Positions 5,073-53,876 of a DNA stretch of 64,000 bases are shown here, in pieces. Below the pieces are notes generated by a model. It was not told the DNA's origin. It made no database searches and worked only from the letters and a program-made list of their open reading frames with translations. The stretch lies in the NCBI GenBank assembly GCA_000146465.1, contig CP001946.1. The stretch is one strand, 5' to 3'. A program made the position numbers and the translations under genes. Every line of letters begins with the position of its first letter. Position 1 is the first letter of the stretch.

Positions 5073-8000
5073 ATGATGAAGGACCTTTTTGTAGGTAGTG
5101 AACCAAGCGAGGTGAAGGCCAACCGGCTCAAGAAGTACATGGAAAGCGGAAGATTCCTTGAAACTCTTTTTTTCCCACATGAGTTTTTGGAGTCACTAGT
5201 TTTATTTGCTATTCAGATACTCAACAGTACGGAACCTGAGAAAAAATCGTCATTTGTGTCTGGAGGGAATGAATCTCGCTACATTGTCCTCAGGCTTTTG
5301 AACAAGTTTTCGCTGAAAAGGATTAGGAATACAGGATTAGTGCATGCACTCCATTGTGTGCTTAGAAATGACAATCTCCCAAACGTGATTTTGTCACTGA
5401 AGGCATTAGGTTCTCTGAGCAGATCGGGGGTCATTGCAGGAGATCTGGTGGAGGTGCATGTTGGAGTCCTTCTTGGGATGGTTCACAACCTCTTTACAAA
5501 CCTGGAAAGTGGAGAAGAAGGGCTCATTGAGATATCGCTATTTACTCTTACAGAGATGCTGACCCATGCCAGGGTTTTTTTCCGTGGGTTGGAGTACCAT
5601 GCTGTGAAGATTGATCAATTTTTGGCCTGTGTGTATGGAAACATCAGAAGAGCTTTTGAAAACCGGAGATTCATGGATGGGATGATGCATAAAAGGACGT
5701 CTTCAATAAGCATGTGTTCTGGAATCTGTAGTCTCCTCAAGCTGACATATGAGCAGCTTCCTATTGTGTCGAAGTCAGGGCCTTATCATGTGTTTGCTTG
5801 TGAGGCAGCATTTGTTGGGATGTATTACTGTCCCTCCGATCTCCTGGACCTTAGGAAGGAGATCTACATGCTGTTTAGCAAGATGTGTATAGGAGACAAA
5901 GAGATGGTTCTTCCTATGATGGACAAAGTGTATATGGTTCCATTTCTTTTTTCTCCAGATGCACAGCCAATGAGCGTCAAGGGGATTGGAATGCTCTCTG
6001 AAATGCTCGTGCATGTTAAGGAGAACCTTAGCAAGGCAGCATACATGGAGTTTGGGTCGAAGGTATTCAATGTGCTTTTTTCAACCTGTTCTTCAATAAG
6101 GAGGCTATGCAAGGAAGTTCATGAGGGAGGAGAAGAAAGACAGAAATATCGGAGGAATGCAAGCGATATAATTAGCCAGGATATTGAAAGTCTCATAGTA
6201 TGTCTAGGGGCGGTAGAGAACACATGCAAATGCTTTGGAGGCAGGACAGGAGATTCCGAAGAACTCAGCCACATTTATCTCAAGAGCTTTTACGATATAA
6301 GGAATGGATTTGAAGGAATCCAGGGATTAGTAAGACTGGGATGCGCAGGCAAGGAGGAGGAGTTGAAGAAGGTTGTAAAGAAATTTGTCTCTGGATTTCG
6401 AGAAGTGATTGGAAGAGCGGGAATCCTTGAAAAGTCTGGAAATGGGATTGTCTTTTCTGTACCCGAGATCAATATCCTGTATGAGATATTTGAGAGGTCT
6501 TTTGATGTATTTTTGCATGAGTGCCTGTGCCAAGAGCAGGACATTGAAGAGTTTTTCTCTGTGCTGTCTCTTGTTAGAGAGCACATTGGAAGCGATATAG
6601 TCAAATGCCTTTCAGAAAGAATTGTGGAGTACAGCAAGAAAAACGGGGAGTTCTTTGGGATATGGAGATTGATGAGCAGCTCTGTAATTTTGGGAAACAC
6701 ATTCTGTGGATATGTACTTCCACGAATGATCGAGGAGCTCGATAGAGAGGGATTTGAATTTGTCAAGAGGGCAATGAGATATATTGTTCCGTTTTTTGGA
6801 AACGATATAAAGAAGATAAAGCGAGTCAATACATTCTTCATGCACAGGATAATATCAACTCTGTTGGCAGCCAAGAGGATGGAAAACTTCGAAATTTTGC
6901 TGGAGATCTTCAACATGTTTGGATCGATGCCTGAGAAGAGCAGCTTTTTCCAGAAATACATCTTCGACAACTTCTCAAGGATAGTTTCTCATCTTATGAA
7001 TCTTTATGAAGTTGAGGGAAAGAGCATATTTATAGAAATGATATTTTCCTTGCCAATAAGTATCAACCTACTTGAATCAGATATCCAATTTCTCATGAGA
7101 CCTATTGAAGAGGCCTTAATGCTTCATGGGCCAGTAAGAACCAAGGCGCTGTCTATTCTTGTGTATGTTCTTGACTTTTCAACACCAGATAAGATTTCGG
7201 GTCTTGAGAAGACATGGCAAAACATTTTAAATAACGTAGCAGAGGGCTTGAAGGATAGCACAATGCTGTCGTTGTGTTCGAGAATACTGGGGAAGCTCAA
7301 GAGCTATCACAAGACGTTTGTAGTAGATGGGAAGATGTTTGAAGAGACAAACGAAGATTTAAAACTTATTAGGATAGTGGTGGATGGAAAGCATGCAGTT
7401 CCTGGGCATCTCTTGTTTTTCGATGCAGTGCAGAAGATAAGGGGGGCCTTTGAGCTGTCTGAAAAGAGCTTTGGGCCTTCTGGTGTTCTCACCAGGTTCA
7501 GGAGTCTAGGGCCCCGATGTGGAGATGGAGAAGCCAAAGGCGCAGCATTCAGACTAGTGGAGAAGGTGGTGTGCCATCTGATGGGATGGAACTCCTCTGG
7601 AAAGAACTTGATTCAGAATTATTACGAGTCTCTTCTGGAGGAGATGGAAGAGATAGGAAGCATTCCAGACACATTGGATTACATACACTCGGTTCATGGG
7701 GTTATCTCTTCGTTAGGCGGGAGGAAATGCTCGGACAGTCGGCATTTGGCCCAGTATGTCTACGATGCAATCCTCACGCTCTTCAGTTGCCATGGAACCC
7801 CTTTTGAAAAGAAAGCTCTGGAACTCCTTCATTCTATTTTTGGAGTCGTGATACTCCACAAGATATCTACTCTTCACAGGCCCAAGGGGAAGAGATACAC
7901 GATTCTTCTTGACACAGACACATTCCTTGATGCACTTGTAGAGTCGTTTTGCGATACCGAGAACTCGATGCCTTTCAAGGTACTCTCTGTAATGTTTGTC

Positions 8001-11000
8001 CAGATGTACGAGATGTTTGGAAGGAAATGCGAATACTTCTGTGTTGAGATGTATAGGGCTGTTTTCTCCAAGCTCAAGGCCATGTGCAAGTCTTCGAACA
8101 AGAGATGTAGAGACGCTGGAATCAATGGAATCATATGTCTTGCAGCAACAATGCCTATTCGAGAGCTTGTGATGCTCCGAGTCCCGGAAGATTCGTTTTC
8201 ATGTACATACCTTTATCTTCTTCCTCGGGGATCCGAAGATTTCTCTCTTCCCCTCCGGCTGGTTGTCTTTATCTTGAGATTCAGATACAAGGGAATTAGG
8301 AATTATTTGCTCTCCTCTGGAATGGAGAGGCACTTCATGATGTCGCATTTCAGACCGTTTGTTGCAGGCCTCTTTGATGGGAGAAAGGATGTTATGGACT
8401 TTTCCCAAGCTGTGTTGAGAGAAGTGTTCCAGAGCTATGGGCCTCGCCTACTGGAAAGACACAAGGACATGGTTTTTGGGTTTTTCAAGAAGGAATATGT
8501 AATAGGAAGCAGGGAAACAATGATAATGCACTTGAAAGTGTTTATTTTCTGCGTTCGAGAGGGCAAGTGTCCGTTTGACGATTGCGAGATGAAGTATCTT
8601 ATCGAGAAGTTTCTGGATGGGATTGCAAGCAACGAGGAGTGGAGAGGAACTGGAGGGGTTTATATGGGCTTTGACCACTGTGAAAGAGACGAAAGCACAA
8701 ACAACGAGGACTTTTGCAAGTGCAACAGATGCGGGAAGGGCGAAGAAGACACAGAGATTGTTCTAGGAGGGATCCATAAGAAGTTATCTTCGCTATCTAT
8801 GAGGGATTTGATGGAAATTGCGCTTAAAAACAAAATGGATGTGGTTTGCGGAGATTGCAAGAAAAAGATCTACAGACATAAGGAGGAGTGGTCTCCTAGA
8901 TTCAGTAACGAGGGGGAGGAGTTGATTTACTGGATAAGAGAGTTTTATTTGCTTGTCATTGAGTACAGGAAGTCCTTTGAGGAGATAAGAACAGCGGTTT
9001 TGTATTTATTGAGATATGTTTCGGACGATTCCTCGGATTACCTGCAGAAGGCACACAATATACGGCCGCAAGAGACAGAAGAGGTAATATCAGAGGAAGT
9101 GGAGAAGTGTCTGTCTGAGAAGGTCGACTACAAGATCCTCAACATGTTACTGTGTGCACATTCGATATCGGGGATTCGGGAGAATCCAAGGGTAGGGATG
9201 CTTGTTCTGAAGATTCTGAAAGAATTCAGGATTCCGAAAGAGTTTGCAATAATAGCACAGAATGACAGATACTCGATGCTGGCAAAGGCGTATGAAATAG
9301 GAATTAGACTGAAAAACCAGGAGGGGCTGTGCAACGAGATTCTGGAAACATACTTTGTACTTGACGGATATGCCAAGAGTTACACTTCCAGGATGTATCC
9401 TCGAATGATTAAGTATGTAGAGGATCTTGGATCACAGTTTGTAAGTTGTATGTTCCGAAGAATTCAAGACCCATCGGCTTACGAGTTGTGTTCACAGCTC
9501 TGCAAGGACTCGGCCAAGCTAAGAGAAATGGTGTTTGGAATGAAGGACAGACTTGCGGAGAGAATATCGCAAATATATTGCAGACTGGAAGGAAATGACT
9601 CCATAGAAAAGGATGTGTTTGTGTATTCGTATCGGTTTCTTGATCTTGCAGGGTATGAGATGAAGCCTGTCGACATTCAGGTTATTCTTGGGATTTATGC
9701 TGATGTGAAGACAAAGCCCAGACATGCTGTTGAAATGAGGGGGCTGATAAATAGATGCATCGACAGGTTTTCTCCAGAGAACCTCGAGACACTGTTCAAC
9801 ATAGACCCATGGTTTATGTCTGTGGATGGGATAGACCCGGGATATCTTACAGAGGGGCTTTCACCCTTGACTCTTAGGGGGATTATCCGGAGTATTGATA
9901 AGAGAAACAGACCCATGATTGAGAATTTGAGCCTATCTCTTGGAGAAAACAGACACATGCTGATTGAGATGTTTGTGGAGATGGGGATCAGGTCTGAGAA
10001 GCTTATTGGATACTGCAAGGAGAATCTACACATCACGAACCTTAGAGGGCTCCTGCTCTACTATCTATGCACATTCGAGCCCTTGCATGTCTATTTTGAA
10101 CTCCTGTTCAAGCTCCCTTACGAAGACAGGAAGTACACGCTATACTGTCTAGAAAGGATTGTCGATGTTTTTGATCCTCTTCTCTTTGAAGAGATAATTC
10201 TGATTGTGCTGCGCTCTGAAGTAAGGTTCAAGACAAGTCTCTGTATTCTGTTTCCTCTACTTCTATCGAGGCCCAGTCTTATCAGCAAGAAGATTGTGCT
10301 TGAGCTTACAGGGTCGATCTATAAGCTTCTTGATTCAGAGAACTTCCCCCAGCAGAGAATGGGGTTTAAGCTGTTTGAAGTTCTATACAACAGGTGTCTA
10401 TTAGGAGATGGATCGGGGAATATATGCAGAGAGTATGATTGGATCATAAGGAACATATACACTCTCATGTTTGTGAGGTTTATTCATATGGATCAGGACT
10501 TGGATGGAGATCTTCTTGAAAAGTACAATCTGGAGCTTGTTTTTGAGTTGGTGGAGTACTCTCCCAAGGAGCTAAATCTTAACAACATGTTCAGCTTTCT
10601 CGAAGCGGAGATTCTGAGCAAGAAGAATGAGGAGTACAAGATATGGTTTTTGAAAAGCATTGGAATGGCCATAGCGCCGTATTTCCGATCAAGGGCTTTG
10701 GGAATCAAGGTTATTGAGTATCTGGTGCGCATTGGGATGTGGAATTACAAGCTTCTTCGGGAGGAGCTGGGGGTTGTTGTGTACGACCCGAGCCTACTGT
10801 ACAATCTCCTTTGCATGCTTTGTAGCAAAGCTGGTGAAAGAGCTGGTTTGGGATGCAAGGCTCATAGGGATGATGTAGAAAACATGGAGATATGCTTGAT
10901 AGTGATAAGACATTTATTTGCAGAGTACAATAGAGAGAGAGGAGAAGCCAACCAGAAATATGTGGAGGAAGGACTTGAGAAGCTGTTCTATGTTTTATCT

Positions 11001-14000
11001 CTATACTCTGAAATGAAGAATATTGTGTGCTCGGTAACTAGGCTGTTCGTGGAAGCATTCAAGGACAATTCCTCTCGGATAGATCCATTAGTAAGCAAGA
11101 TAAGTTTCTTGATGTCTGATTTCAGAACGTCGCTTGCAGACAAGATTGAAATGGCTTGTCTCTTGAGCAATCGAGGGCATGACAATGAGTTTCTTAGTGA
11201 GATGCTGCTTCCGGCCTTCAACAATTATCTCTACTCTGGAGTTACCTTTCCGTCAGGCCTGCAGAAGTTCTTTATGAAAGGAGTCAGTTCGAAAAACAGC
11301 ATCTTGAGGAATGGATATCTAGATCTGATGAACCGCATTGTTCCTGTAAGCAAGTGGATGAGACTTAAGTATCTGCTGGAAATGGAATGGAAGCACAACG
11401 CAAAGATAGGATACACAATGACGGCGATGATGATCCTTTCTTGCCACACAGCAGAACTGGAGGCAGAAAAGTACTCGGAAATAAGACCGAGCAAGGATAT
11501 TGAATATCCTTGGTCACGGGAGGGGATGAGATGCAAGGGAAATGTGAGCAGATGCAGTGGACTTGTTGCGAATCTTCTTGAAGATGTTGGCCTATACAGG
11601 TCCAAGGCGTCGAAGCCAGACCTCCTGGAAATTCTGTACCACTTCGACGATTCCCTACTTCCGGTGCTATCTGGAGTCTTAAGAACTACTGTATGTGGAT
11701 TGGATTCCGAGAAATGTAAAAGCATATTCGAAGGCTTTGTGAAGTTCTGCTCGGAGGTTACAGGAGAAGGGAAACTTCTTGGAGCCCTTGTTAGGGGTCT
11801 TGGGCCTATATATAGACATGCAGATCTATATGAGCTTATTAAGGTATTCCGAGGAGGAGAGGGATGGTACACGCTACTGGAGTATGCAGATGATAGGCAG
11901 AAGACAGAGATATACAGGAGATTGATGAACTTGGATGAATACTTTGGAATGTCGCGGTCGGTGTGTATTTTTCCTGAGACGATGCAGGCATATTTCCTTC
12001 AGCAAGTGGGAAAGACCAAGGAAGCACAGGATCTCTATGAGGAGATCCAAGCCAGAGCAGGAAAGCACAAGATATCTTTTGACGAAAGGGAGTACAAGCT
12101 GTGGCAAGATGAGTGGGTGGCATGTGCAAAAGAACTGCAGCAATGGGATGTATGCTACGATGCAGGAGTGGAGATCGGGGATGGCTTGCTAAGTGGAGAA
12201 TCGTTGTGGCATCTTTCGAACTTCACAAGCCAGAAGGCAGTGGAGAAACTCAAAAGCGTGATTGGCAAGGGAGTAGGATTTGAAAGAGAATTCCTCGATG
12301 TATTTGCAGATATATTTATGAAGTATTCGGCAGAGAGGATCAAGGGAATCCTAACAAAGAACATTGCAGAGCTCAGGAGTTACCCCGTAGGAAGTGGAGC
12401 AAACCTAAGAAATCTTATGTATCTGCAGATCATCATAGAAATGGTTGAGGCAGAGCCTATTTTTAACGACAAGATAGACTCGATAGAAGCATTGACATCG
12501 ATATCCTTCCGATGGAAGGACAAGGAGCCGTCCATCTACAGCTCTTTTGCAGAATGGAGCCTCTTCAAGACATGGAGAAAACATGTATATTCGAGATTGG
12601 GAATGGGAGAGAAGATGTGTGGCAGAGAGATGGGATACAAGCAGCCAGAAAGAGGTTACACAGAGGAGATGGGAAATTCCTTGGGTAGAAAGCCTATAGC
12701 ATCGCATTTGTTTTCTCCAAAAGAGATGAATGAGAACTATGCAAAGATAAAAAAGGAACTGGTGGCCCGAGGAACAAACGAATTGGCAAAGACTCTGAAC
12801 ATGTTTTCCAAGGCAGCCATCGACCATGGATACTATGATGTGGCTCTATTCCATCTTAAAGAAGTCTTTGACCTAAGCAGTGTAAAGGTAGGGGATGCCT
12901 TCCAGAAGGTTGTTTATGAGCTACTTTGCTTTCTCGGCAAGAAAGAGTACAAGATAGGAGCCGAGCAGTGCATGTCGGCAAACATACAACATTTCAGTGA
13001 TACACAGAATTCGGTACTATTCAACATCAAGGGGCTGTTCAATGAGAAGCTTGGAAAGGCTTCGGATGCCGAAAAATTCTATTTGCAGTCTGCACAGATA
13101 TGCAACACAGTTGGAGAAAACTGGCTCACATGGGCGAGTTTCTTGTTTGGTAGGATCGATGGAGATGCTCCAGAAGTAAAGGAAGACGTCTTTGTTGCTC
13201 TTCTACAAGCCATTACCTACTGCAACGGCCCAAATGCAAGGAAAGGAATTCTTAAGATGATTCTACTTATGGGAGAGCATTCCTCGCTCTGTGATGTGGA
13301 GTTGTTCCACAAGGTTCTTCAAGAGATTGACATCTCTCGATTTATATACTTTATTCCGCAACTGATTGGGCTACTGGAAAAGGAAGACTCAAGGTTGGTG
13401 CAAGCCATACTTGGCAAGATCTCGGAAGAGTATCCGCAAGCAGTGATAGGGCCCCTTAAGGCAGCTAAGGAAAGAATAAGAAGAAGCTTGGGGCTTGGAA
13501 AGGAAGATATAGAATGCAAGGTGGGGGAACACAAGGTAGAAGGTAGAAGTAGCGAAGATTCAAAGAGTCTTGGGACTGGACTGGTGACTGGAGAGAAGAA
13601 CATGTTTTTGGAGAATGTTATGTGTATATACAACCGGATAAAAAACGCCCAACCAGGGAAAGAGTTCTGGAAGATCCTTCACTATCTTCACAATTCGCTG
13701 AACTCCTTCGCCTTTAAGGAGGAGGAGCTTGTGTATCTGGAGATCGAGAAGATCTTCAACAGTGCTGTGTCGCATGTTGTGCATGGGGCTGTTCCATCGG
13801 GCCTTGGCCATGCTAAGATTCTGAACGAGCTTATTTTCCAGGTTTCTGTTTCTTCCCTAAGCCGGAAACTCAAGGAAGAGCTTACATCTTCCATTCTCAA
13901 GATGAGGTGCATCTGCCCTCTTGAGAACATCGATGAAATGGTACGGTTCAAAAGTAAGGTGCAGAAGATTGTAGAAGAATCCTTCCATAGGATGGACAAG

Positions 14001-15380
14001 TCCGAGGAGTCTGAGGTGAATCTACTGCTATACAGATCCGACTACAAGCATCGAGTATTTGGACAATACTCGGAAATAAGAAGAAGTTACAAGAGCCTTG
14101 CGAGCATAGAGATGTTTGAGCCTCGGCAGCCCTACATGTACAGAAAAAGAATGGGATGCAATAGAATTCACCTGAGAGGAAGCGATGGGAAGATGTACAG
14201 ATACGAGATGAAAGAGTTAAGGAAGATGAGGTTCTCTGAGTTTGTCCTTCCACAGATATCTTTGATGATTAACGAGGCGATGGGCGAGGACACCAACTTG
14301 CGAAGGAGAGGTGCGGAGTTGAGGTTGTTTGTTCCCTTTATTGCTAGTGAAGTTCTTGCATTGAAATGGATCAAGGAGCCTGTCTATTACATGGATAGTA
14401 TATTGGAAGAGGGGCTAAGTAGATACAAGATGAACATTGATCAATGTGTGCTTCTTTATCTTGATCACTTTGCAACTATCTACGATGGGTTAGACTCAAG
14501 TCCAGGGCATTTCGAGAACAGATATCAGCTGGAGAAGGGACTCACTGCAAGCCTAAAGCCGAGGATTCAAGGAGACGAATGCCCCAATATAAGGAAGAAA
14601 AAAGGCTTTCTTGAAAGCAAGGAGTCGCAGGAGAACCTCATAAACAATGTTAGAATGGTTATTGAGAGGCAGAGGGAGAAGTACACAAGTGGTTTGAGAC
14701 AGAACGAAGTCGAGTGTCTTGGATGCAATGAAAGAGGAGAGGGGATTTCTCCATGTACCTATAGATATGAAACCTCAAAGCGGCAAAGATACATGGCTTA
14801 CGAGAAGGTATACAACACCTTCAAGAAAACTAGCTTTGTGGATGATTACTTCAAGCTTATTTATGGAAACCTGGGAGGATACTTCCGATTTAAAAACAAA
14901 CTTCTTTCCAGTTATTCAGCCAACAGTGTCTTTTTGTACACGTTCTCTGTTGTAGACAGGAGGCCAAGAAACCTTGCCATCACCAAGACTACCGGCTGTT
15001 TTATGAATAGAGACGTCTGTTGCGAGGAAGCTGAGATATCGAGCAAAGGAAAGGGAATGGGGGCCATAGGACCAGGATACCAGAAGCTCTTTGGGAAAGA
15101 AGGGATAGAAGGCACAATGGTGTCTATTATGTATCATTATGCCGGGATGGTAAACAAGGGAGATTGGAGTAAGGATCTGGTGAAAGCTCTACTTGAAGGC
15201 AGGTTTATAGACATGACGGGAAAAGGACTCAAGGGAGCTCACAAGGAAATGCTAAGTAGAGTCTCTGAGATGATTGGAAAAGGCGAGGATGGGACCCATA
15301 ATGTGATTCCGATGGTTAGTGAGTGGATGGACATGTTCAAGCTAGCACAGATTGATCCAAGACATATGTGCTGGATGTGA
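5073..15380 (+). CDS. TRA1: Tra1/TRRAP-like PIKK-family scaffold protein (pseudokinase), 3435 aa
   Basis: A single 10.3-kb ORF with an ATG preceded by 'aaaaaccc'. It has long helical-repeat (HEAT/TPR-like) regions. The C-terminal PI3K-like domain has a degenerate catalytic loop (VDRRPRN in place of DRHxxN; no DFG). The FATC-like end is ...AQIDPRHMCWM. The size and pseudokinase character fit Tra1/TRRAP rather than TOR, ATM or ATR. Confidence 0.75.
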   Translation: MMKDLFVGSEPSEVKANRLKKYMESGRFLETLFFPHEFLESLVLFAIQILNSTEPEKKSSFVSGGNESRYIVLRLLNKFSLKRIRNTGLVHALHCVLRNDNLPNVILSLKALGSLSRSGVIAGDLVEVHVGVLLGMVHNLFTNLESGEEGLIEISLFTLTEMLTHARVFFRGLEYHAVKIDQFLACVYGNIRRAFENRRFMDGMMHKRTSSISMCSGICSLLKLTYEQLPIVSKSGPYHVFACEAAFVGMYYCPSDLLDLRKEIYMLFSKMCIGDKEMVLPMMDKVYMVPFLFSPDAQPMSVKGIGMLSEMLVHVKENLSKAAYMEFGSKVFNVLFSTCSSIRRLCKEVHEGGEERQKYRRNASDIISQDIESLIVCLGAVENTCKCFGGRTGDSEELSHIYLKSFYDIRNGFEGIQGLVRLGCAGKEEELKKVVKKFVSGFREVIGRAGILEKSGNGIVFSVPEINILYEIFERSFDVFLHECLCQEQDIEEFFSVLSLVREHIGSDIVKCLSERIVEYSKKNGEFFGIWRLMSSSVILGNTFCGYVLPRMIEELDREGFEFVKRAMRYIVPFFGNDIKKIKRVNTFFMHRIISTLLAAKRMENFEILLEIFNMFGSMPEKSSFFQKYIFDNFSRIVSHLMNLYEVEGKSIFIEMIFSLPISINLLESDIQFLMRPIEEALMLHGPVRTKALSILVYVLDFSTPDKISGLEKTWQNILNNVAEGLKDSTMLSLCSRILGKLKSYHKTFVVDGKMFEETNEDLKLIRIVVDGKHAVPGHLLFFDAVQKIRGAFELSEKSFGPSGVLTRFRSLGPRCGDGEAKGAAFRLVEKVVCHLMGWNSSGKNLIQNYYESLLEEMEEIGSIPDTLDYIHSVHGVISSLGGRKCSDSRHLAQYVYDAILTLFSCHGTPFEKKALELLHSIFGVVILHKISTLHRPKGKRYTILLDTDTFLDALVESFCDTENSMPFKVLSVMFVQMYEMFGRKCEYFCVEMYRAVFSKLKAMCKSSNKRCRDAGINGIICLAATMPIRELVMLRVPEDSFSCTYLYLLPRGSEDFSLPLRLVVFILRFRYKGIRNYLLSSGMERHFMMSHFRPFVAGLFDGRKDVMDFSQAVLREVFQSYGPRLLERHKDMVFGFFKKEYVIGSRETMIMHLKVFIFCVREGKCPFDDCEMKYLIEKFLDGIASNEEWRGTGGVYMGFDHCERDESTNNEDFCKCNRCGKGEEDTEIVLGGIHKKLSSLSMRDLMEIALKNKMDVVCGDCKKKIYRHKEEWSPRFSNEGEELIYWIREFYLLVIEYRKSFEEIRTAVLYLLRYVSDDSSDYLQKAHNIRPQETEEVISEEVEKCLSEKVDYKILNMLLCAHSISGIRENPRVGMLVLKILKEFRIPKEFAIIAQNDRYSMLAKAYEIGIRLKNQEGLCNEILETYFVLDGYAKSYTSRMYPRMIKYVEDLGSQFVSCMFRRIQDPSAYELCSQLCKDSAKLREMVFGMKDRLAERISQIYCRLEGNDSIEKDVFVYSYRFLDLAGYEMKPVDIQVILGIYADVKTKPRHAVEMRGLINRCIDRFSPENLETLFNIDPWFMSVDGIDPGYLTEGLSPLTLRGIIRSIDKRNRPMIENLSLSLGENRHMLIEMFVEMGIRSEKLIGYCKENLHITNLRGLLLYYLCTFEPLHVYFELLFKLPYEDRKYTLYCLERIVDVFDPLLFEEIILIVLRSEVRFKTSLCILFPLLLSRPSLISKKIVLELTGSIYKLLDSENFPQQRMGFKLFEVLYNRCLLGDGSGNICREYDWIIRNIYTLMFVRFIHMDQDLDGDLLEKYNLELVFELVEYSPKELNLNNMFSFLEAEILSKKNEEYKIWFLKSIGMAIAPYFRSRALGIKVIEYLVRIGMWNYKLLREELGVVVYDPSLLYNLLCMLCSKAGERAGLGCKAHRDDVENMEICLIVIRHLFAEYNRERGEANQKYVEEGLEKLFYVLSLYSEMKNIVCSVTRLFVEAFKDNSSRIDPLVSKISFLMSDFRTSLADKIEMACLLSNRGHDNEFLSEMLLPAFNNYLYSGVTFPSGLQKFFMKGVSSKNSILRNGYLDLMNRIVPVSKWMRLKYLLEMEWKHNAKIGYTMTAMMILSCHTAELEAEKYSEIRPSKDIEYPWSREGMRCKGNVSRCSGLVANLLEDVGLYRSKASKPDLLEILYHFDDSLLPVLSGVLRTTVCGLDSEKCKSIFEGFVKFCSEVTGEGKLLGALVRGLGPIYRHADLYELIKVFRGGEGWYTLLEYADDRQKTEIYRRLMNLDEYFGMSRSVCIFPETMQAYFLQQVGKTKEAQDLYEEIQARAGKHKISFDEREYKLWQDEWVACAKELQQWDVCYDAGVEIGDGLLSGESLWHLSNFTSQKAVEKLKSVIGKGVGFEREFLDVFADIFMKYSAERIKGILTKNIAELRSYPVGSGANLRNLMYLQIIIEMVEAEPIFNDKIDSIEALTSISFRWKDKEPSIYSSFAEWSLFKTWRKHVYSRLGMGEKMCGREMGYKQPERGYTEEMGNSLGRKPIASHLFSPKEMNENYAKIKKELVARGTNELAKTLNMFSKAAIDHGYYDVALFHLKEVFDLSSVKVGDAFQKVVYELLCFLGKKEYKIGAEQCMSANIQHFSDTQNSVLFNIKGLFNEKLGKASDAEKFYLQSAQICNTVGENWLTWASFLFGRIDGDAPEVKEDVFVALLQAITYCNGPNARKGILKMILLMGEHSSLCDVELFHKVLQEIDISRFIYFIPQLIGLLEKEDSRLVQAILGKISEEYPQAVIGPLKAAKERIRRSLGLGKEDIECKVGEHKVEGRSSEDSKSLGTGLVTGEKNMFLENVMCIYNRIKNAQPGKEFWKILHYLHNSLNSFAFKEEELVYLEIEKIFNSAVSHVVHGAVPSGLGHAKILNELIFQVSVSSLSRKLKEELTSSILKMRCICPLENIDEMVRFKSKVQKIVEESFHRMDKSEESEVNLLLYRSDYKHRVFGQYSEIRRSYKSLASIEMFEPRQPYMYRKRMGCNRIHLRGSDGKMYRYEMKELRKMRFSEFVLPQISLMINEAMGEDTNLRRRGAELRLFVPFIASEVLALKWIKEPVYYMDSILEEGLSRYKMNIDQCVLLYLDHFATIYDGLDSSPGHFENRYQLEKGLTASLKPRIQGDECPNIRKKKGFLESKESQENLINNVRMVIERQREKYTSGLRQNEVECLGCNERGEGISPCTYRYETSKRQRYMAYEKVYNTFKKTSFVDDYFKLIYGNLGGYFRFKNKLLSSYSANSVFLYTFSVVDRRPRNLAITKTTGCFMNRDVCCEEAEISSKGKGMGAIGPGYQKLFGKEGIEGTMVSIMYHYAGMVNKGDWSKDLVKALLEGRFIDMTGKGLKGAHKEMLSRVSEMIGKGEDGTHNVIPMVSEWMDMFKLAQIDPRHMCWM

Positions 15381-20082: not shown

Positions 20083-20165
20083 GGTGGCGTGGCCGAGCGG
20101 TCTAAGGCGGCAGACTTAAGATCTGCTATCGGAAGATGTCGTGGGTTCGAACCCCACCGCCACCA
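20083..20165 (+). tRNA. tRNA-Leu (anticodon TAA), type II with long variable arm
   Basis: Acceptor stem GGTGGCG/CGCCACC, anticodon stem gcaga/tctgc with loop cTTAAga, extra arm tatcggaagatgtcg, T-arm gtggg-TTCGAAC-cccac, discriminator A. Confidence 0.9.
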
Positions 20166-20246: not shown

Positions 20247-20900
20247 TTAATAGAGAGTTATTGGTGATGTTTGATTGGTCTTGATCATCACTCCCTTCAA
20301 GCTTTGCGAGCCCTTCTTCAGGTATGAGATGAGCAGCCCCATCCCTGTCTTGATGTTTTCATATATGTGGTCTGTTTCCATTCCAGTATGGCCCACAGGA
20401 AACGAGGTAACTGCAAAGTCCTTGATACGGAGCTTGTAAGACCTTTTTGCCGTCTCAAATACCGTCTTGATATCGTCGTCGTTCTTAAGAATATAGGGTG
20501 TCTTTCCACACCGAAGAATGTTCTTGAGCTGGAAGACCTTGTTATATCCTGGGCAGAGGATAAAATACTTGTTCCTCTTCAGCACCTCGTCTCTCTTGGC
20601 TTTCTTGTTGTCTCCGCTGATCTCTTCAATAGACACATACGGTACCTCTGCATCAACACATGTCTGAACATGTGCCTCATCGGCAATCACAATTGTCTTG
20701 TCGAGTCTTCGCACCTTGTAGGGAAAGGCCATGTCCTTCGACAGTTTATTATCTTTCCTGGCATCATATCCCTTGAGATTCACTTGGATCTGGATCGTAG
20801 CTGTCTTCTCTGCATCCTCGTTTTCCTTCAGACGGTTGATAACCGAGATAATTCTCTTGGCCTCAAGAAATGCAAGTTGCTCCTCGCCTTGCTTGCTCAT
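20247..20900 (-). CDS. RPL10A: 60S ribosomal protein L10a (uL1)
   Basis: MSK...IQIQVNLKGYDARKDNKLSKDMAFPY, FILCPGYNKV, IKDFAVTSFPVGHTGM and the SPITLY end match the L1/L10a family. Confidence 0.9.
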   Translation of the reverse strand: MSKQGEEQLAFLEAKRIISVINRLKENEDAEKTATIQIQVNLKGYDARKDNKLSKDMAFPYKVRRLDKTIVIADEAHVQTCVDAEVPYVSIEEISGDNKKAKRDEVLKRNKYFILCPGYNKVFQLKNILRCGKTPYILKNDDDIKTVFETAKRSYKLRIKDFAVTSFPVGHTGMETDHIYENIKTGMGLLISYLKKGSQSLKGVMIKTNQTSPITLY

Positions 20901-28108: not shown

Positions 28109-28179
28109 GGATGTAGGCAATGATACGATCTTGGCCTGGGAAATTAGAGGTAAATTTTTTTTCGAGTCTACCCTTGTGA

Positions 28180-28862
28180 ATGAAGGTAAGTGGACTTTGA
28201 AAGACTAATTTCAGTTAAACATAGCATATCCAACGAATGGTACACAGAAGATGTTTGAGATTGAAAGAAAGGTGGAATCAAGGCTTTACGACAAGAAGAT
28301 AGGAGATCAGTTTGATGGGGGAATTCTCGGAGAAGAGTTTGAAGGAACAATTATGGAGATCACAGGAGGAGACGACTATCAGGGCTTTCCCATGGTAGGG
28401 GGGCACTTGACGAAGAAGAGAGTAAGGCCTCTTCTATCGAAGGGGGATACAGGATACCGATGCAGACGCAAGGGAGAGAGGCGGCGCAAAAGCGTCCGTG
28501 GATCGATTGTTTCTGAGCAGACCTGTGTACTGAGCCTGATAATTCTGCGAGCCGGGGAGAAGGAGATAGATGGGCTTACAAATGTTGTCAATGACGTTTC
28601 CCATCTTCCCAGGAAGGAGAAGAAGCTTAGGAAGATGTTTGGGATTCCTGCAGAGGAAGAAAACGTTGTGGGATACATCAGGAACATATTTAAGTCTGAA
28701 TGTGAAGATCCAAAGAAGATACCCAAGATTCGGTGCAATGGAAAGAAAATAAGGAAGGAAAAAGAAAGAAGAGAGGAGGCTAGGAAGATCAGAGGAGAAA
28801 GAAGAAGAATATTGGAGGAGGAAAGGAAAGCATATCTTGAGAAGTACTTCAATAAAGCCTGA
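28180..28862 (+). CDS. RPS6: 40S ribosomal protein S6 (eS6), spliced: join(28180..28185, 28215..28862)
   Basis: The ORF-track ORF (28251..) lacks the conserved N-terminus. Exon 1 is ATG AAG (MK) at 28180-28185 and exon 2 starts TTA AAC ATA GCA..., giving MKLNIAYPTNGTQKMFEIERKV, which matches the RPS6 N-terminus [24 protein letters not shown]. The body has LLSKGDTGYRCRRKGERRRKSVRGSIV. Confidence 0.85.
28186..28214 (+). other. spliceosomal intron (29 nt) in RPS6
   Basis: gtaagtggactttgaaagactaatttcag has a canonical GTAAGT donor, an ACTAAT branch-like motif 5 nt before the TTTCAG acceptor, and an in-frame stop (TAA 28206-28208) inside the intron. Confidence 0.8.
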
Positions 28863-28883: not shown

Positions 28884-29837
28884 CTATGGTTCCAGGCCCC
28901 AGTCCTTGCACCATTCTGGGAGGTTGGCTACATACTCTATTCCATTATATGTGTATTTCCAAGCATGAAGGCAGATATAGTAGTCCTTAGTGACGAAAGA
29001 CCTATTGTTTCTTCCTTTACAACTCCTTACCACATATTCGTATTTTCTTTTATCCTCAAAGCCACTTATCTCTGCATTGCAGGTGCTATCCCAAAGTGGC
29101 TGTGGCAACTCCCCATCCCCATACATGATGTCGTTTACAATTGGAAATCCTATACTTTGGAGATGAATTCTAATCTGGTGTGTGCGCCCGGTAATAGGCC
29201 TACATTCCACAAGCGAATGCCCATCTTTGTATGCTAGTCTTCTGAACAGTGTCAAGCATGCCTTTCCCTCGTCGCTAACATATCTGTGCTTTCCTTCGGC
29301 ACATGAGATCTTCTTATCTACATCTATGCTGTCAGGAAATAGTCCTTGTACCTTTGCGAGGTAGATCTTTCTGGCTTCTCTGATTGCTTCCAAGCATTTA
29401 GAATGGTTTTTCACTGCAACAATCAAGACCCCGGACACAGGCATGTCCAGTCTGTTGATGCAGGCCACCTTCTTGTCCCCAAAGAGTGCTCTTGTGACCG
29501 AGTATTCTCTATAACCTCCGGTGGGGTGGCATGGCATCCCCGGAGGCTTGTTCACGACAACATAGTCTTGCTCCTCCCTTATTATATCTATTTCCGGATG
29601 TGCCGGCTCATGAATGTGGACTGTATGCCTTATGACATCTCCGATTCGGAGTATTCTTCCGGGTTCCACAATCTCTTCGTTAACTGTTACTGCCCCGCAT
29701 TCCAACGCAGACAGAAAATAGTCCTTGGTTCTTGTTCTAAATTCCGAAGCAAGGACATCTATCACCGGTTTCTCACACCACCGTCCCTTAACGTTGGTTC
29801 TGAATGTGAAGAAGTATTCAGCCTCCCCTTTTGCCAT
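28884..29837 (-). CDS. RluA-family pseudouridine synthase
   Basis: HRLDMPVSGVLIVAVK (catalytic Asp motif), GRTHQIRIHL, and an N-terminal S4-like region. Confidence 0.85.
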   Translation of the reverse strand: MAKGEAEYFFTFRTNVKGRWCEKPVIDVLASEFRTRTKDYFLSALECGAVTVNEEIVEPGRILRIGDVIRHTVHIHEPAHPEIDIIREEQDYVVVNKPPGMPCHPTGGYREYSVTRALFGDKKVACINRLDMPVSGVLIVAVKNHSKCLEAIREARKIYLAKVQGLFPDSIDVDKKISCAEGKHRYVSDEGKACLTLFRRLAYKDGHSLVECRPITGRTHQIRIHLQSIGFPIVNDIMYGDGELPQPLWDSTCNAEISGFEDKRKYEYVVRSCKGRNNRSFVTKDYYICLHAWKYTYNGIEYVANLPEWCKDWGLEP

Positions 29838-36435: not shown

Positions 36436-37434
36436 ATGGGGCTACAAGCAATAAAGATGAGGAGAGGGGATCCCATGGAGACAGAAGTATATGCAGTGGA
36501 CTTCAATCCGAGTAAAAACATACTAATATATGGAGGGGGGGACGAGAGATGCATTGTTATGGATCTCGGGACCGGCGACATTATCAGTATAGTAGAGAAT
36601 TTTAACGACTCGATAATATTTTGTAAGTTTGTAGATGATGAGAGATTCATTGTTGGATCGTTGAATGGAACGATATCTCTAATGACATTAGAAGATGAGA
36701 TTAATAGTGTTGAGGTGGGAGAAGACATCTCAAAAATGAAAATAGATGGAGATAAGCTTCTAGTGGGGACAGCCCAAGGAAATGTGCATCTATTCAGCTT
36801 GGACCTGTGTATTCAGAATGTCTGCATTGGCCAGCACAACGAAATACAAGACATATGCTATGAAAGAGGCAAGGCATACACCCTCAGCGAGGCAAACTTC
36901 ATGGTATTTGATGCCAAGAGCCACCAGAAGCTTATGGACTTGTACGTGAGGGATGGAAGTGCCATGGACAAGATCCCTGGGAGCGATGTAGTATGCCTGG
37001 GGTTGAAGGGATGTGCTCTAATACGAAAGAACGCTCATCTTCTGGGAAGGATCGAGATTGAAGGAAGTCCGGAATGTATCCTGTACATGAACAACTACTT
37101 TATTGTTGGTGGGGATTTTGATCATATCCTTCTCATTAACATGCCTATGGGAATGCGCACATTCAAGATACCGATTGAGGGAATGTCAGGGATATCGAGG
37201 ATAAGAGGAGATGGAGAAAATCGGATTGTGTTTGGAACGTTTGGAGGAGTGGTTGGCTTTGGCGACATAAGGGATGAGAAAAGTTTTAAGCTTGTCGAAG
37301 GTGGAGTGGGATGCATCTTTGATCTGTGCTTCAAGGACGGAATGATATATGTTGGAGGAGAAGAAGGATTTAATGTGGTTGATGTAGGAAAGGATTACAG
37401 TGGAGCAGCAAAGGAATACTTTCCTTCGAGCTAA
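36436..37434 (+). CDS. WD-repeat / beta-propeller protein
   Basis: Repeated beta-strand blocks (IYGGGDERCIVMDL, IVGSLNGTISLM, LVGTAQGNVHLFSL, IVGGDFDHILLINM). The ATG abuts the LCB2 stop codon. Confidence 0.6.
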   Translation: MGLQAIKMRRGDPMETEVYAVDFNPSKNILIYGGGDERCIVMDLGTGDIISIVENFNDSIIFCKFVDDERFIVGSLNGTISLMTLEDEINSVEVGEDISKMKIDGDKLLVGTAQGNVHLFSLDLCIQNVCIGQHNEIQDICYERGKAYTLSEANFMVFDAKSHQKLMDLYVRDGSAMDKIPGSDVVCLGLKGCALIRKNAHLLGRIEIEGSPECILYMNNYFIVGGDFDHILLINMPMGMRTFKIPIEGMSGISRIRGDGENRIVFGTFGGVVGFGDIRDEKSFKLVEGGVGCIFDLCFKDGMIYVGGEEGFNVVDVGKDYSGAAKEYFPSS

Positions 37435-37450
37435 TACTAATAAAGACGAA

Positions 37451-44006: not shown

Positions 44007-45110
44007 ATGGGTAATAACAAGATTCCAATGTGGGAGCAGTGCAAAGCCTTTACTCTTGAGTTTAATTCCTTGGAGAATAAGGAAAGGACAACCTCTATGC
44101 AGTATGGGGAGCGCCTATACATAGGGTGTGGAGACGGACGTGTGGAATGCTATGGAGACAAGAAGCTGTACTCCTTCCAGGGATTTGAGTTAGAGTTCGA
44201 CTATCTTGAGAGCTGTGATGTAGCCGAGAAAGTGCTGGCGATTGAAAAGCTAGATTGCGGAGGGCCTGAGGAGCTTCTTGCCGTTGGAAACGAGCGAAGC
44301 CTGAAGATATGGAGGATCAGGAACAAGGGTCCTACCAAGGAAGTTGTGGAAGGAAGATTTTCGGAAGAGTATGATTACACATGTGTAAAAGAGTGTAAGA
44401 ATGTGCATCCGTGTATTTTGAATAGCTTGAGTCTTAATAATGACAAGCAGTATCTTCTGTCCTCCGACTATCTAAAGATAAATCTGTGGAAGCCCGAAAA
44501 GATCGAAGGATGCTTCACGATTGTGGATGTGAAGCCACACAAATACAGTGATCTGATGTTTGTAATCAACTCAACGAAGTTCAGTAGCGAAATGAACATG
44601 GTGTTTGGGTATTCAACAAGCTCTGGAGTAATCCACATAAACGATCTAAGACTCTCCTCGAAGTCGTTGGAAGTCCTAAAAATAGACGGGGTGGATGTGG
44701 ATGGAATTGAAGGGGCAGTGAAGTCCATTTCCGACTTCCAGTTTGTTGATTCAAACCTGATTCTTGCCAGATGTCTCAACTCTGTCACACTCTATGACAT
44801 GAGAAATCCCAAGGATAGTGTTTTTACTACTGTACTGTGCGACGATACAGACGAAATCAGTTCTGTTTATGAGTCTGATGCAGTGTATACAAGGTTCAGG
44901 ATTTCCTGTTCAAACGGCTATGGGTTCACAGGAGGATTTCAGGATGCAGTCCATATCGTCAATCTCTCGGACGGATCGAAGGAGGATTTGGAAATACCTT
45001 GTGAGCCAAAGAATACAGAGAAGAAAGACAAGCTCAAGCTAGTGTGCTCGAATGGAGAGAGGTTTGTTGTTGCTTGTGAGGACAAACTGTTTGAATACAA
45101 GCATGTTTAG
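44007..45110 (+). CDS. CDC55: PP2A regulatory subunit B55 (PR55/Cdc55)
   Basis: EFDYLES...LAVGNERSLKIWRI and LSSDYLKINLWKPEKIEGCFTIVDVKP match B55 (EFDYLKS..., [26 protein letters not shown]). Confidence 0.85.
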   Translation: MGNNKIPMWEQCKAFTLEFNSLENKERTTSMQYGERLYIGCGDGRVECYGDKKLYSFQGFELEFDYLESCDVAEKVLAIEKLDCGGPEELLAVGNERSLKIWRIRNKGPTKEVVEGRFSEEYDYTCVKECKNVHPCILNSLSLNNDKQYLLSSDYLKINLWKPEKIEGCFTIVDVKPHKYSDLMFVINSTKFSSEMNMVFGYSTSSGVIHINDLRLSSKSLEVLKIDGVDVDGIEGAVKSISDFQFVDSNLILARCLNSVTLYDMRNPKDSVFTTVLCDDTDEISSVYESDAVYTRFRISCSNGYGFTGGFQDAVHIVNLSDGSKEDLEIPCEPKNTEKKDKLKLVCSNGERFVVACEDKLFEYKHV

Positions 45111-46653: not shown

Positions 46654-47028
46654 CTAACCATCAAGCTCGGGATCTTTACCTTGTATGAAGTCTACAATGT
46701 CTGCCTCTATCTTTCCAGAGGCTTCTCTATCCGACAGAATCTGGTCGCACACAAACTTCATGTAGATTGGAAGCATTCTCATTCTTTCCTCCACAACATC
46801 CCCACTCATTTTGTTCCACCTCTTTCTTGGAAACTCCGGAAGTACTTTCACAAGGCATCTGAGCCTGGAGTGAAGTTTGTAGAAATCTCTGTATCGCTTA
46901 AAAACCTTTGTGTAACGCTTCTTGAAGCTTTTGTTATTAGTGACACATACAACCTCATACTCGGTATATTTGCCCTCGACATTTCTTGTTCCGGGAATCG
47001 TTATTTCTAGAACACTCTCTTCTTCCAT
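46654..47028 (-). CDS. PX-domain protein (small sorting-nexin-like)
   Basis: RYTKVFKRYRDFYKLHSRL...LPEFPRKRW follows the PX consensus (R.Y.DF..L...L....LP.LP.K). Confidence 0.65.
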   Translation of the reverse strand: MEEESVLEITIPGTRNVEGKYTEYEVVCVTNNKSFKKRYTKVFKRYRDFYKLHSRLRCLVKVLPEFPRKRWNKMSGDVVEERMRMLPIYMKFVCDQILSDREASGKIEADIVDFIQGKDPELDG

Positions 47029-51227: not shown

Positions 51228-51300
51228 GCCGCCATAGCTAAGTGGTTATAGCGCCAGTTTAGTAAACTGGAGGCCCCGAGTTCGAATCTCGGTGGTGGCT
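51228..51300 (+). tRNA. tRNA-Thr (anticodon AGT)
   Basis: Acceptor GCCGCCA/TGGTGGC (one G-U pair), D-arm gcta-agtggtta-tagc, anticodon stem ccagt/actgg with loop ttAGTaa, variable loop aggcc, T-arm ccgag-TTCGAAT-ctcgg. Confidence 0.85.
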
Positions 51301-52367: not shown

Positions 52368-52850
52368 TTAGAAGATCACTATATGAGGTTCGTAGCCAAC
52401 CTCAATAGGCTGATTGTTTTCAAGAGATATCACCATTTCCTTTCTTGGGCCCTCGATCTTCCTTTTGATTGGTGGAAGCACCATTCCCTTGGATTCGGCC
52501 TCCTTGGTCATCTCGGATATCTCACGGATCCTCTTCTGGCTCTCCTCGCAGCATCTGCTCTTTCTCACATGCTCAACACGTGCAATCACCTTCTTGATCA
52601 CATACTTCCCTCGAACTCTCTTGTAAAGGGCAATACCAACAGATCTGGGCTTTACGTCATAGACACGCCCTGTTCGCCCGTGGTAGTACTTGTGAGGCAT
52701 TCCTTTCATCATGGATGGATTCACCAAAATATCCACCATGTCTCCTATCTCATACTTCTCAAGATACCTTGATACATGTGCAACCCCATGTTTCCTGTGG
52801 TCTTGAGAAAACAGCGACCTGGTTCCTCTTCTGTATCCCTTGCTCCTCAT
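52368..52850 (-). CDS. RPL21: 60S ribosomal protein L21e
   Basis: The ORF-track start (52955) is TTG with a non-homologous 35-aa lead-in. The conserved start is MRSKGYRRGTRSLFSQDHRKHG ([23 protein letters not shown] in human); also GMPHKYYHGRTGRVYDV. Confidence 0.9.
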   Translation of the reverse strand: MRSKGYRRGTRSLFSQDHRKHGVAHVSRYLEKYEIGDMVDILVNPSMMKGMPHKYYHGRTGRVYDVKPRSVGIALYKRVRGKYVIKKVIARVEHVRKSRCCEESQKRIREISEMTKEAESKGMVLPPIKRKIEGPRKEMVISLENNQPIEVGYEPHIVIF

Positions 52851-52951
52851 TTCTAGGGCTGTTTTTGGAGTTTGAAAAATTTGCATCCCATGGGCATGCC
52901 AACCCAGGATTCCAAAGTTTATGACCCCACCAGTTCCAACCATTCTACACT

Positions 52952-53170
52952 TCAAGATGTTTCCTCCACCAGCACTATATCCTCTATAAACTCTCCCCGC
53001 ACAACAGCAGAGCTTTCGACATCATCGGGCTCGGTAATTTCAGACAGTACAATATTCATAAACGCATCGTATCCCGCCAATCGCCCCTTGATTACTTGCC
53101 CTCCTCCAATCCTCACTACAACTCTTTTATGCAGTAGTCCCGTTAGGTTTGGAACAGCTCTCTTTCCCAT
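52952..53170 (-). CDS. Sm-fold protein (SmG/LSm7-type)
   Basis: LLHKRVVVRIGGGQVIKGRLAGYDAFMNIVLSE matches the SmG motif ([28 protein letters not shown]). The ATG is preceded by 'tatccccg'. Confidence 0.8.
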   Translation of the reverse strand: MGKRAVPNLTGLLHKRVVVRIGGGQVIKGRLAGYDAFMNIVLSEITEPDDVESSAVVRGEFIEDIVLVEETS

Positions 53171-53321
53171 CGGGGATAGGAAGACATTTCATTTAACAAT
53201 TGATATGGGCTTCTTGGTTCCAGAATGGCACTCCCGGCCCAGATACACATTCATAATATATTCCAAAGGCACATGCAGGATGTCCGGGCCGATAGAATAG
53301 AACAAAAAATTTTCACCCTGA

Positions 53322-53876
53322 ATGGCAGGCAAGAAGGGCAGCAAGAGAGCAAACACCCCGAGAGACCCGTTTGAAAAGGAAAGACTGATAAGAGAAATCC
53401 AGTTGGTTGGTGTGTATGGCCTGAAGAATAAGCACGAGCTCTGGACGATGGAGAAAATATTTTCAAAGGACAAGGAACGTGCACGTACACTCCTTACATC
53501 GACAAATCCAGAGGACATCCCTATCAATGGAAGGTGTCTTCTCAAGAAGCTGATGAAGTACGGAATACTCAATGGAATCGATCTTTGTGACAAGGAAAGA
53601 GTTATTGATGGTCTGAACAAGGTTCTTGACCTCACAATCAACCATTATCTGGAAAGACGTCTCCAGTTCCGAGTGTTTGCAGCAGGCCTAGCAAGGTCTG
53701 TGCACCACGCAAGAGTTCTTATCAGAGGAAGATGCATCTCAATCAAGGACCAGATTGTCGATGTCCCAGGCTTCATGGTAAGGGCAGATAAAGAGCCGCT
53801 CATCGAATACAACCCATACTCACGCTTTGGAGACAAAGGTAAAAAGAAAGCAGAGGCTACTGTGGAAAGGGGATGA
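53322..53876 (+). CDS. RPS9: 40S ribosomal protein S9 (uS4)
   Basis: [70 protein letters not shown]. The ATG is preceded by 'tttcaccctga'. Confidence 0.95.

Follow-up and report, generated by a model that had tools for sequence, protein, structure and literature searches.

A 29-nt spliceosomal intron predicted after the second codon of the ribosomal protein eS6 gene of Encephalitozoon intestinalis

The 29 nucleotides at 28186..28214 of the 64,000-nt stretch of DNA analysed here (the window) are, with a probability that we put at about 0.95, a genuine U2-type (GT-AG) spliceosomal intron of the gene for ribosomal protein eS6 (RPS6) of E. intestinalis, predicted from its sequence to be excised from the RNA. 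The stretch has the features of a U2-type intron, namely GT and AG ends, the 5' consensus AG/GTAAGT (the slash marks the boundary), which is complementary to the 5' end of U1, and a yeast-like CTAAC/CTAAT branch motif; its removal restores the reading frame and its retention disrupts it, and it evolves as non-coding sequence at a conserved site for which intronless orthologues are available. It also has those of an Encephalitozoon-type intron, being 29 nt long and lying after the first codons of a ribosomal-protein gene in a host that uses AAATTT/CCC signals. The finding is correct but is already known, as the intron is annotated in GenBank for the same genome and published for the E. cuniculi orthologue (PMC2803860). 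The parts of the region are as follows.

28152..28162, plus strand: AAATTT-like signal, AAATTTTTTTT, typical of microsporidian ribosomal-protein genes
28171..28173, plus strand: CCC-like motif that precedes the start codon by 6 nt, read from the sequence
28180..28185, plus strand: coding part of exon 1, ATG (28180-28182) and AAG (28183-28185), encoding Met-Lys
28186..28214, plus strand: predicted intron, 29 nt, GT-AG, phase 0 after codon 2, from the sequence and the comparison with relatives
28186..28191, plus strand: 5' splice site GTAAGT (AAG/GTAAGT), with GT at 28186-28187
28204..28209, plus strand: branch-point-like motif ACTAAT, with 28208 as the presumed branch A
28213..28214, plus strand: 3' splice site AG (TTCAG/), with TTTCAG at 28209-28214
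28215..28862, plus strand: exon 2 of eS6, codons 3-217 and the TGA stop codon at 28860-28862

On the plus strand, AAATTTTTTTTCGAGTCTACCCTTGTGA is followed by ATG AAG, then by GTAAGTGGACTTTGAAAGACTAATTTCAG, and then by TTA AAC ATA GCA TAT CCA ACG AAT GGT ACA CAG AAG ATG TTT GAG; the first 36 nt of exon 2, with their peptide, are denoted LNIAYPTNGTQK. In the open-reading-frame list the uninterrupted eS6 frame has 203 aa and its first ATG at 28251, which leaves off the conserved eS6 N-terminus, as a first-pass annotation made from the letters of the window had pointed out. Extended upstream in frame, this ORF reads D, stop, FQLNIAYPTNGTQKMFEIERK (also read as D, stop, FQLNIAYPTNGTQK); the stop is the TAA at 28206-28208, and between it and 28251 there are zero ATG codons, again as had been claimed. 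The annotation also read 28186..28214 accurately, as ATG AAG followed by a 29-nt stretch that begins with GTAAGT and ends with TTTCAG. Two of its distances do not hold. An ATG AAG does lie upstream of the TAA, but not by fifteen codons, ATG 28180 being 26 nt upstream and in a different frame (the distance from this ATG to the Leu codon of exon 2 is 35 nt); and ACTAAT does lie near the AG, but the motif ends 3 nt rather than 5 nt before it, while the presumed branch A at 28208 is 5 nt before the A of the terminal AG. With 28185 joined to 28215, the CDS is 654 nt long and its 217-aa product starts MKLNIAYPTNGTQKMFEIERKV... (also given as MKLNIAYPTNGTQKMFEIERK), whereas unspliced translation from ATG 28180 gives MKVSGL and ends after six codons.

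The spliced product is residue for residue NCBI ADM11517.2, the 40S ribosomal protein S6 of E. intestinalis ATCC 50506, and three more NCBI accessions have a sequence identical to it; this agrees with the microsporidian host proposed in the first-pass annotation, and the source of the window is E. intestinalis or a genome nearly identical to it. Compared with the annotated ATCC 50506 gene, ours is the same gene with a 100% identical protein, and nothing of substance differs. In a phmmer search, residues 1-217 of the spliced protein aligned with residues 1-217 of E. cuniculi eS6 (7QEP_S6, E = 1.4e-122), the first 20 residues being identical between the two, and the alignments with eS6 of the ribosomes of Vairimorpha necatrix (6RM3), Paranosema locustae (6ZU5), yeast and mammals also begin at residue 1. 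The prediction that removal of 28186..28214 would restore the eS6 N-terminus is thus borne out by both ADM11517.2 and 7QEP, and the alignment to orthologues is collinear from residue 1 and supports no start at MFEIERK. The Pfam profile Ribosomal_S6e (PF01092, gathering score 26 bits) matches the ORF alone with 140.2 bits over profile positions 16-125, and the spliced protein with 163.8 bits over positions 1-125 of 125, so that splicing restores positions 1-15; together with the alignment to ribosome eS6 chains, this match upholds the identification of the gene as eS6.

The public annotation of E. intestinalis therefore already contains this intron, the deposited protein being the product of splicing 28186..28214. 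The version suffix ".2" suggests that the record has been revised, and such a revision would fit a re-annotation that added 19 newly predicted introns to E. intestinalis (PMC10815200). Public protein collections nevertheless carry eS6 of the window genome and of close relatives as 202-203-aa products that begin at Met15 (P0002, P0004, P0006-P0008), and one further entry (P0005, from JGI) is a 216-aa product that begins at the Leu codon, 'LNIAYPT...'. The N-terminal truncation arises because prokaryote-style gene calling cannot see an intron of 28-31 nt; it is a systematic artefact, and users of such collections see microsporidian eS6 without its N-terminus.

Ribosomal-protein genes of microsporidia have an AAATTT-like signal and then, immediately before the start codon, a CCC-like motif, and their 5'UTRs have fewer than 7 nt (Peyretaillade et al. 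2009, PMC2803860). Both elements precede ATG 28180. The AAATTT-like signal is kept in the orthologues without the intron as well as in the seven that have it, and two C's of the CCC-like motif are invariant columns in a nine-species alignment. Given that the CCC-like motif adjoins ATG 28180 and that 5'UTRs are below 7 nt, the initiation codon is ATG 28180 and not 28251, and the first exon would probably be about ten nucleotides long. The supplementary table of the same study lists E. cuniculi 40S S6 with the signal AAATTTTTTTCCAGGGCCACCCTTGCAA, starred for a mispredicted start and flagged '(intron)' (PMC2803860), and on its sequence this signal would plainly be the orthologue of the window's AAATTTTTTTTCGAGTCTACCCTTGTGA. 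E. cuniculi eS6 (7QEP) is thus like ours in protein length, in its AAATTT...CCC signal and in the intron reported for it (PMC2803860). An intron has also been published for S6 of Antonospora (Paranosema) locustae.

The signals found at the splice junctions would not make this case by themselves. The string GTAAGT-N8-30-CTAAY-N1-8-AG has 1 match in the window against 0.39 expected, and at least one match occurred in 30 of 100 shuffles; on its own the string is not significant and is compatible with chance, and the case therefore rests on context and comparison. As to context, a single one of the 28 GTA[AG]GT sites on both strands, that of eS6, has an ATG 6 nt upstream and a 20-35-nt solution with branch motif and AG, and its splicing brings the gain in Pfam score and coverage given above.

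The comparison is based on a homology search and the encoding contigs, which gave ten loci. In six of these, from E. hellem (L001) and five other assemblies (L002-L006), the gene order is that of the window: glucose-6-phosphate isomerase (PGI), a BIR protein, eS6, a pseudouridine synthase and GWT1. In all six relatives eS6 is interrupted at exactly the same site, and ATGAAG is identical in the seven intron-bearing loci. The interruptions are 29, 30, 29, 28, 31 and 30 nt long in L001-L006, and with the window included their lengths modulo 3 are 2, 2, 0, 2, 1, 1 and 0, which shows a mode of evolution unlike that of coding sequence. The GT...AG ends are kept in 6/6 of the relatives' introns, with GTAAGT or GTAGGT as the 5' splice site, CTAAT, CTAAC, GTAAT or ATAAT as the branch-like motif 3-4 nt before the terminal AG, and TTTAG or TTGTAG at the 3' end (terminal TAG in all six). 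Retention of the intron would lead to a stop or a frameshift in every one of the seven species. Mean pairwise identity is 92% over the first six intron bases and 80% over the last ten, compared to 43% in the interior, and it is 84% over the adjoining 36 nt of exon 2. In each of the species the poorly conserved intron interior (28192-28203 and its counterparts in L001-L006) is rich in purines, as in GAAGGAGAAAATG and GAGAGGAGGAATGA, and both the composition of the intron and its spacing from branch to AG seem to be constrained even where the sequence varies.

The 36 nt that follow the acceptor lie between the in-frame stop and the first ATG of the ORF. Among the seven species, third codon positions make up 11 of the 13 variable columns in this segment, and its peptide is invariant except for one K/R. 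A segment in this position that is under coding constraint must be joined to an upstream start, and we regard the coding constraint upstream of ATG 28251 as the strongest internal evidence for splicing of eS6. The exon junction is also defined directly by orthologues that have no intron, in which ATGAAR runs unbroken into codon 3 and Asn: in Vairimorpha necatrix, Nosema bombycis, Anncaliia algerae and Vittaforma corneae, ATGAAG or ATGAAA is followed directly by CTC, TTA or ATA and then AAC. These four share with the Encephalitozoon-like genomes the N-terminus MK(L/I)N(I/V)A... and the AAATTT/CCC signals before the ATG, but their CDS is continuous where the Encephalitozoon-like genomes carry the intron, which has thus been lost there or was never gained.

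Several differences in arrangement were observed at these intronless loci. The gene is inverted with respect to its BIR neighbour, relative to the Encephalitozoon order, in Vairimorpha (L007) and Nosema (L008); in Vairimorpha the same holds with respect to GWT1 and the pseudouridine synthase. In N. bombycis eS6 is present twice in tandem, at 255-911 and 1501-2157 of its locus. Vittaforma (L010) keeps the Encephalitozoon orientation, with BIR and then S6 on the same strand, yet is intronless, so absence of the intron is not tied to the inversion.

The alternatives to a spliced eS6 gene can be weighed against this comparison. It might be argued that there is no splicing at all, that eS6 is a 203-aa protein begun at ATG 28251 without the usual N-terminus and that the upstream match is a decaying remnant; this is the product that prokaryote-style callers yield for the window genome and its relatives, as noted above, and Met15 is conserved among the Encephalitozoon-like orthologues. 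We consider it very improbable, as a remnant would not show variation concentrated at third positions with a near-invariant peptide, the promoter signals stand before ATG 28180, 71 nt upstream of 28251 where 5'UTRs are below 7 nt (PMC2803860), and the splice signals are conserved while the interior of the intron varies. Still less credible, to the point of being almost negligible, is the idea that the 29 nt arose through an error of sequencing or assembly or through a pseudogenising insertion, or that translation begins immediately downstream of the TAA at a non-AUG codon. The JGI product P0005 does begin at a TTG Leu codon, but the Leu codon that follows the acceptor is TTA in the window and CTG or TTG in the relatives, so that a near-cognate start is not conserved, and a protein begun there would lack the conserved Met-Lys of eS6; an artefact or chance insertion is contradicted by an interruption at the same site in seven independent assemblies of different species. 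On these sequences, conservation across species effectively refutes both forms of the idea. The spliced and the Met15 starts also differ in their products, the peptide (M)KLNIAYPTNGTQK being the N-terminal peptide expected only from the spliced eS6 start.

A further possibility is that the intron is real but mostly retained, so that most transcripts would encode MKVSGL, or a truncated eS6 through re-initiation at Met15, and the intron, regulated or not, would put a brake on the output of eS6. In E. cuniculi, all introns annotated earlier were found to be spliced but at low levels (Grisdale et al. 2013, PMC3629993): fewer than 50% of transcripts were spliced for 30 of 37 introns (81% of junctions) and fewer than 20% for 22 of 37 (PMC3629993), with a mean of less than 20% for short introns (PMC6349667). 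These figures, and the stop or frameshift that retention would bring in 7/7 species, lend such a brake some plausibility. On the other side, eS6 is essential and abundant, its full-length sequence is under purifying selection in the species compared, and the low spliced levels of E. cuniculi have been ascribed to an inefficient spliceosome and not to regulation (PMC3629993). On balance we think predominant retention possible but rather unlikely; it is in any case compatible with the spliceosomal intron proposed here and does not replace it.

If 28186..28214 is such an intron, the most likely start of transcription would be a few bases past the CCC-like motif, and the first exon would consist of the cap-proximal bases and ATG AAG. 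The reduced microsporidian spliceosome would recognise AAG/GTAAGT together with ACTAAT a few bases from the terminal AG, with A 28208 as the probable branch nucleotide, and would join 28185 to 28215, giving an mRNA that encodes the full 217-aa eS6. Were the intron kept, translation from ATG 28180 would be expected to stop after the six codons of MKVSGL, and, by analogy with E. cuniculi, a substantial share of eS6 transcripts may retain the intron and encode only this peptide.

This agrees with what is established for the genus. Introns of E. cuniculi are 22-76 nt long, of GT-AG type with strict motifs (PMC3629993, PMC6349667), and occur mostly in ribosomal-protein genes, where they usually start right after the initiator ATG (PMC6349667, PMC3629993); such miniature, 5'-biased introns have been described by Katinka 2001, Lee 2010 and Grisdale 2013, as summarised in PMC3629993 and PMC6349667. 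The first-pass annotation had likewise invoked a microsporidian pattern of very short introns after the first codons of ribosomal-protein genes, which accords with these two sources. The eS6 intron falls in the same 22-76 nt range and in a ribosomal-protein gene, starts after codon 2 and would produce a stop if retained, and we found no difference between it and the Encephalitozoon type; it does not belong to the atypical class of long (76 nt), efficiently spliced introns of the poly(A)-binding protein and S23 genes (PMC6349667).

A second intron was sought in the window, both at the 28 GTA[AG]GT sites and in a relaxed scan that looked for 20-80-nt stretches of the form GT..TAAY..AG and required that, once such a stretch is taken out, an ATG close by leads into an ORF of 80 codons or more, and no other credible one was found, which sustains the earlier description of the window as otherwise intron-poor. 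Four candidates arose and all were rejected as due to chance. Those at 37384-37445 (plus strand), 44369-44447 (plus strand) and 40963-40923 (minus strand) involve ATGs that are out of frame inside, or at the tail of, long ORFs. The remaining one, the 23-nt GTATGTGTCACTAATAACAAAAG at 46950..46928 on the minus strand (GTATGT...CACTAAT...AG, its 5' splice site being of yeast type), is part of a 124-aa ORF without interruption, 47028-46654, and was judged a chance look-alike; by visual inspection the ORF (minus strand) has a PX-like domain that continues across these 23 nt, and upstream of the ORF's ATG at 47028 there is a CCC motif.

A search of the window for AAATTT/CCC(GGG) signals led to three further ribosomal-protein genes, all of them uninterrupted.

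20247-20900, minus strand: uL1/L10A (Ribosomal_L1 family), uninterrupted ORF with upstream signals
52368-52850, minus strand: eL21 (Ribosomal_L21e), uninterrupted ORF with upstream signals
53322-53876, plus strand: uS4/S9 (S4-domain protein), uninterrupted ORF with upstream signals

L10A, L21 and S9 of E. cuniculi have no intron flag in the table of Peyretaillade et al. (PMC2803860). In the window the motif of L10A is of the less common GGG-like kind (AAAAATTTTTGCCTTTACAAGGGGTAAGATG), which agrees with published data on E. cuniculi L10A. Between the divergent genes L21e and S9 lie 471 nt (52851-53321), a long distance for so compact a genome, and the gap holds a Ser/Thr-rich ORF of 136 aa (ATG 52890, plus strand) with its own AAAAATTTGCATCCC signal before the ATG, which may be a small real gene.

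Other features of the window were recorded in passing. An Rfam scan gave only two tRNAs above the gathering score, and no snRNA; the tRNA genes are at 20083-20165 and 51228-51300 (both plus strand), and the length of the former, 83 nt, points either to a long variable arm or to an intron. One sixth of the window is taken up by a single ORF of 3435 aa that runs without interruption at 5073-15380 (plus strand). At the 3' end of eS6, an AATAAA at 28851-28856 (plus strand) overlaps the final codons and is a possible polyadenylation signal; AAUAAA-like signals can start within the CDS (PMC2803860). The stop of eS6 (28862) and that of the convergent pseudouridine synthase (ORF 28884-29837, minus strand) are just 21 nt apart, so the 3' ends of the two transcripts must either overlap or be extremely short.

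The recovery of a real 29-nt intron, and with it the true start codon of an essential gene, from raw sequence alone serves mainly as a quality check, and for the biology of Encephalitozoon it adds nothing beyond the established miniature, 5'-proximal introns of its ribosomal-protein genes. In Saccharomyces cerevisiae the first exon of both RPS6A and RPS6B is the 6 nt ATGAAG, and their introns are hundreds of nucleotides long. The E. intestinalis eS6 intron would lie at the same position and in the same phase, after Met-Lys, as those of the two yeast genes, and such a shared site would suggest an old, positionally conserved intron. One could go further and combine this with retention, such that the retained intron is a conserved throttle on eS6, in which MKVSGL resembles a minimal upstream ORF with possible re-initiation at Met15, at a site shared with RPS6A and RPS6B; taken jointly, we hold this to be improbable. 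If the site does match that of RPS6A/B, one ancestral intron would have survived in two lineages, each of which lost nearly all of its introns independently of the other, and its persistence would hint at a function tied to its position.
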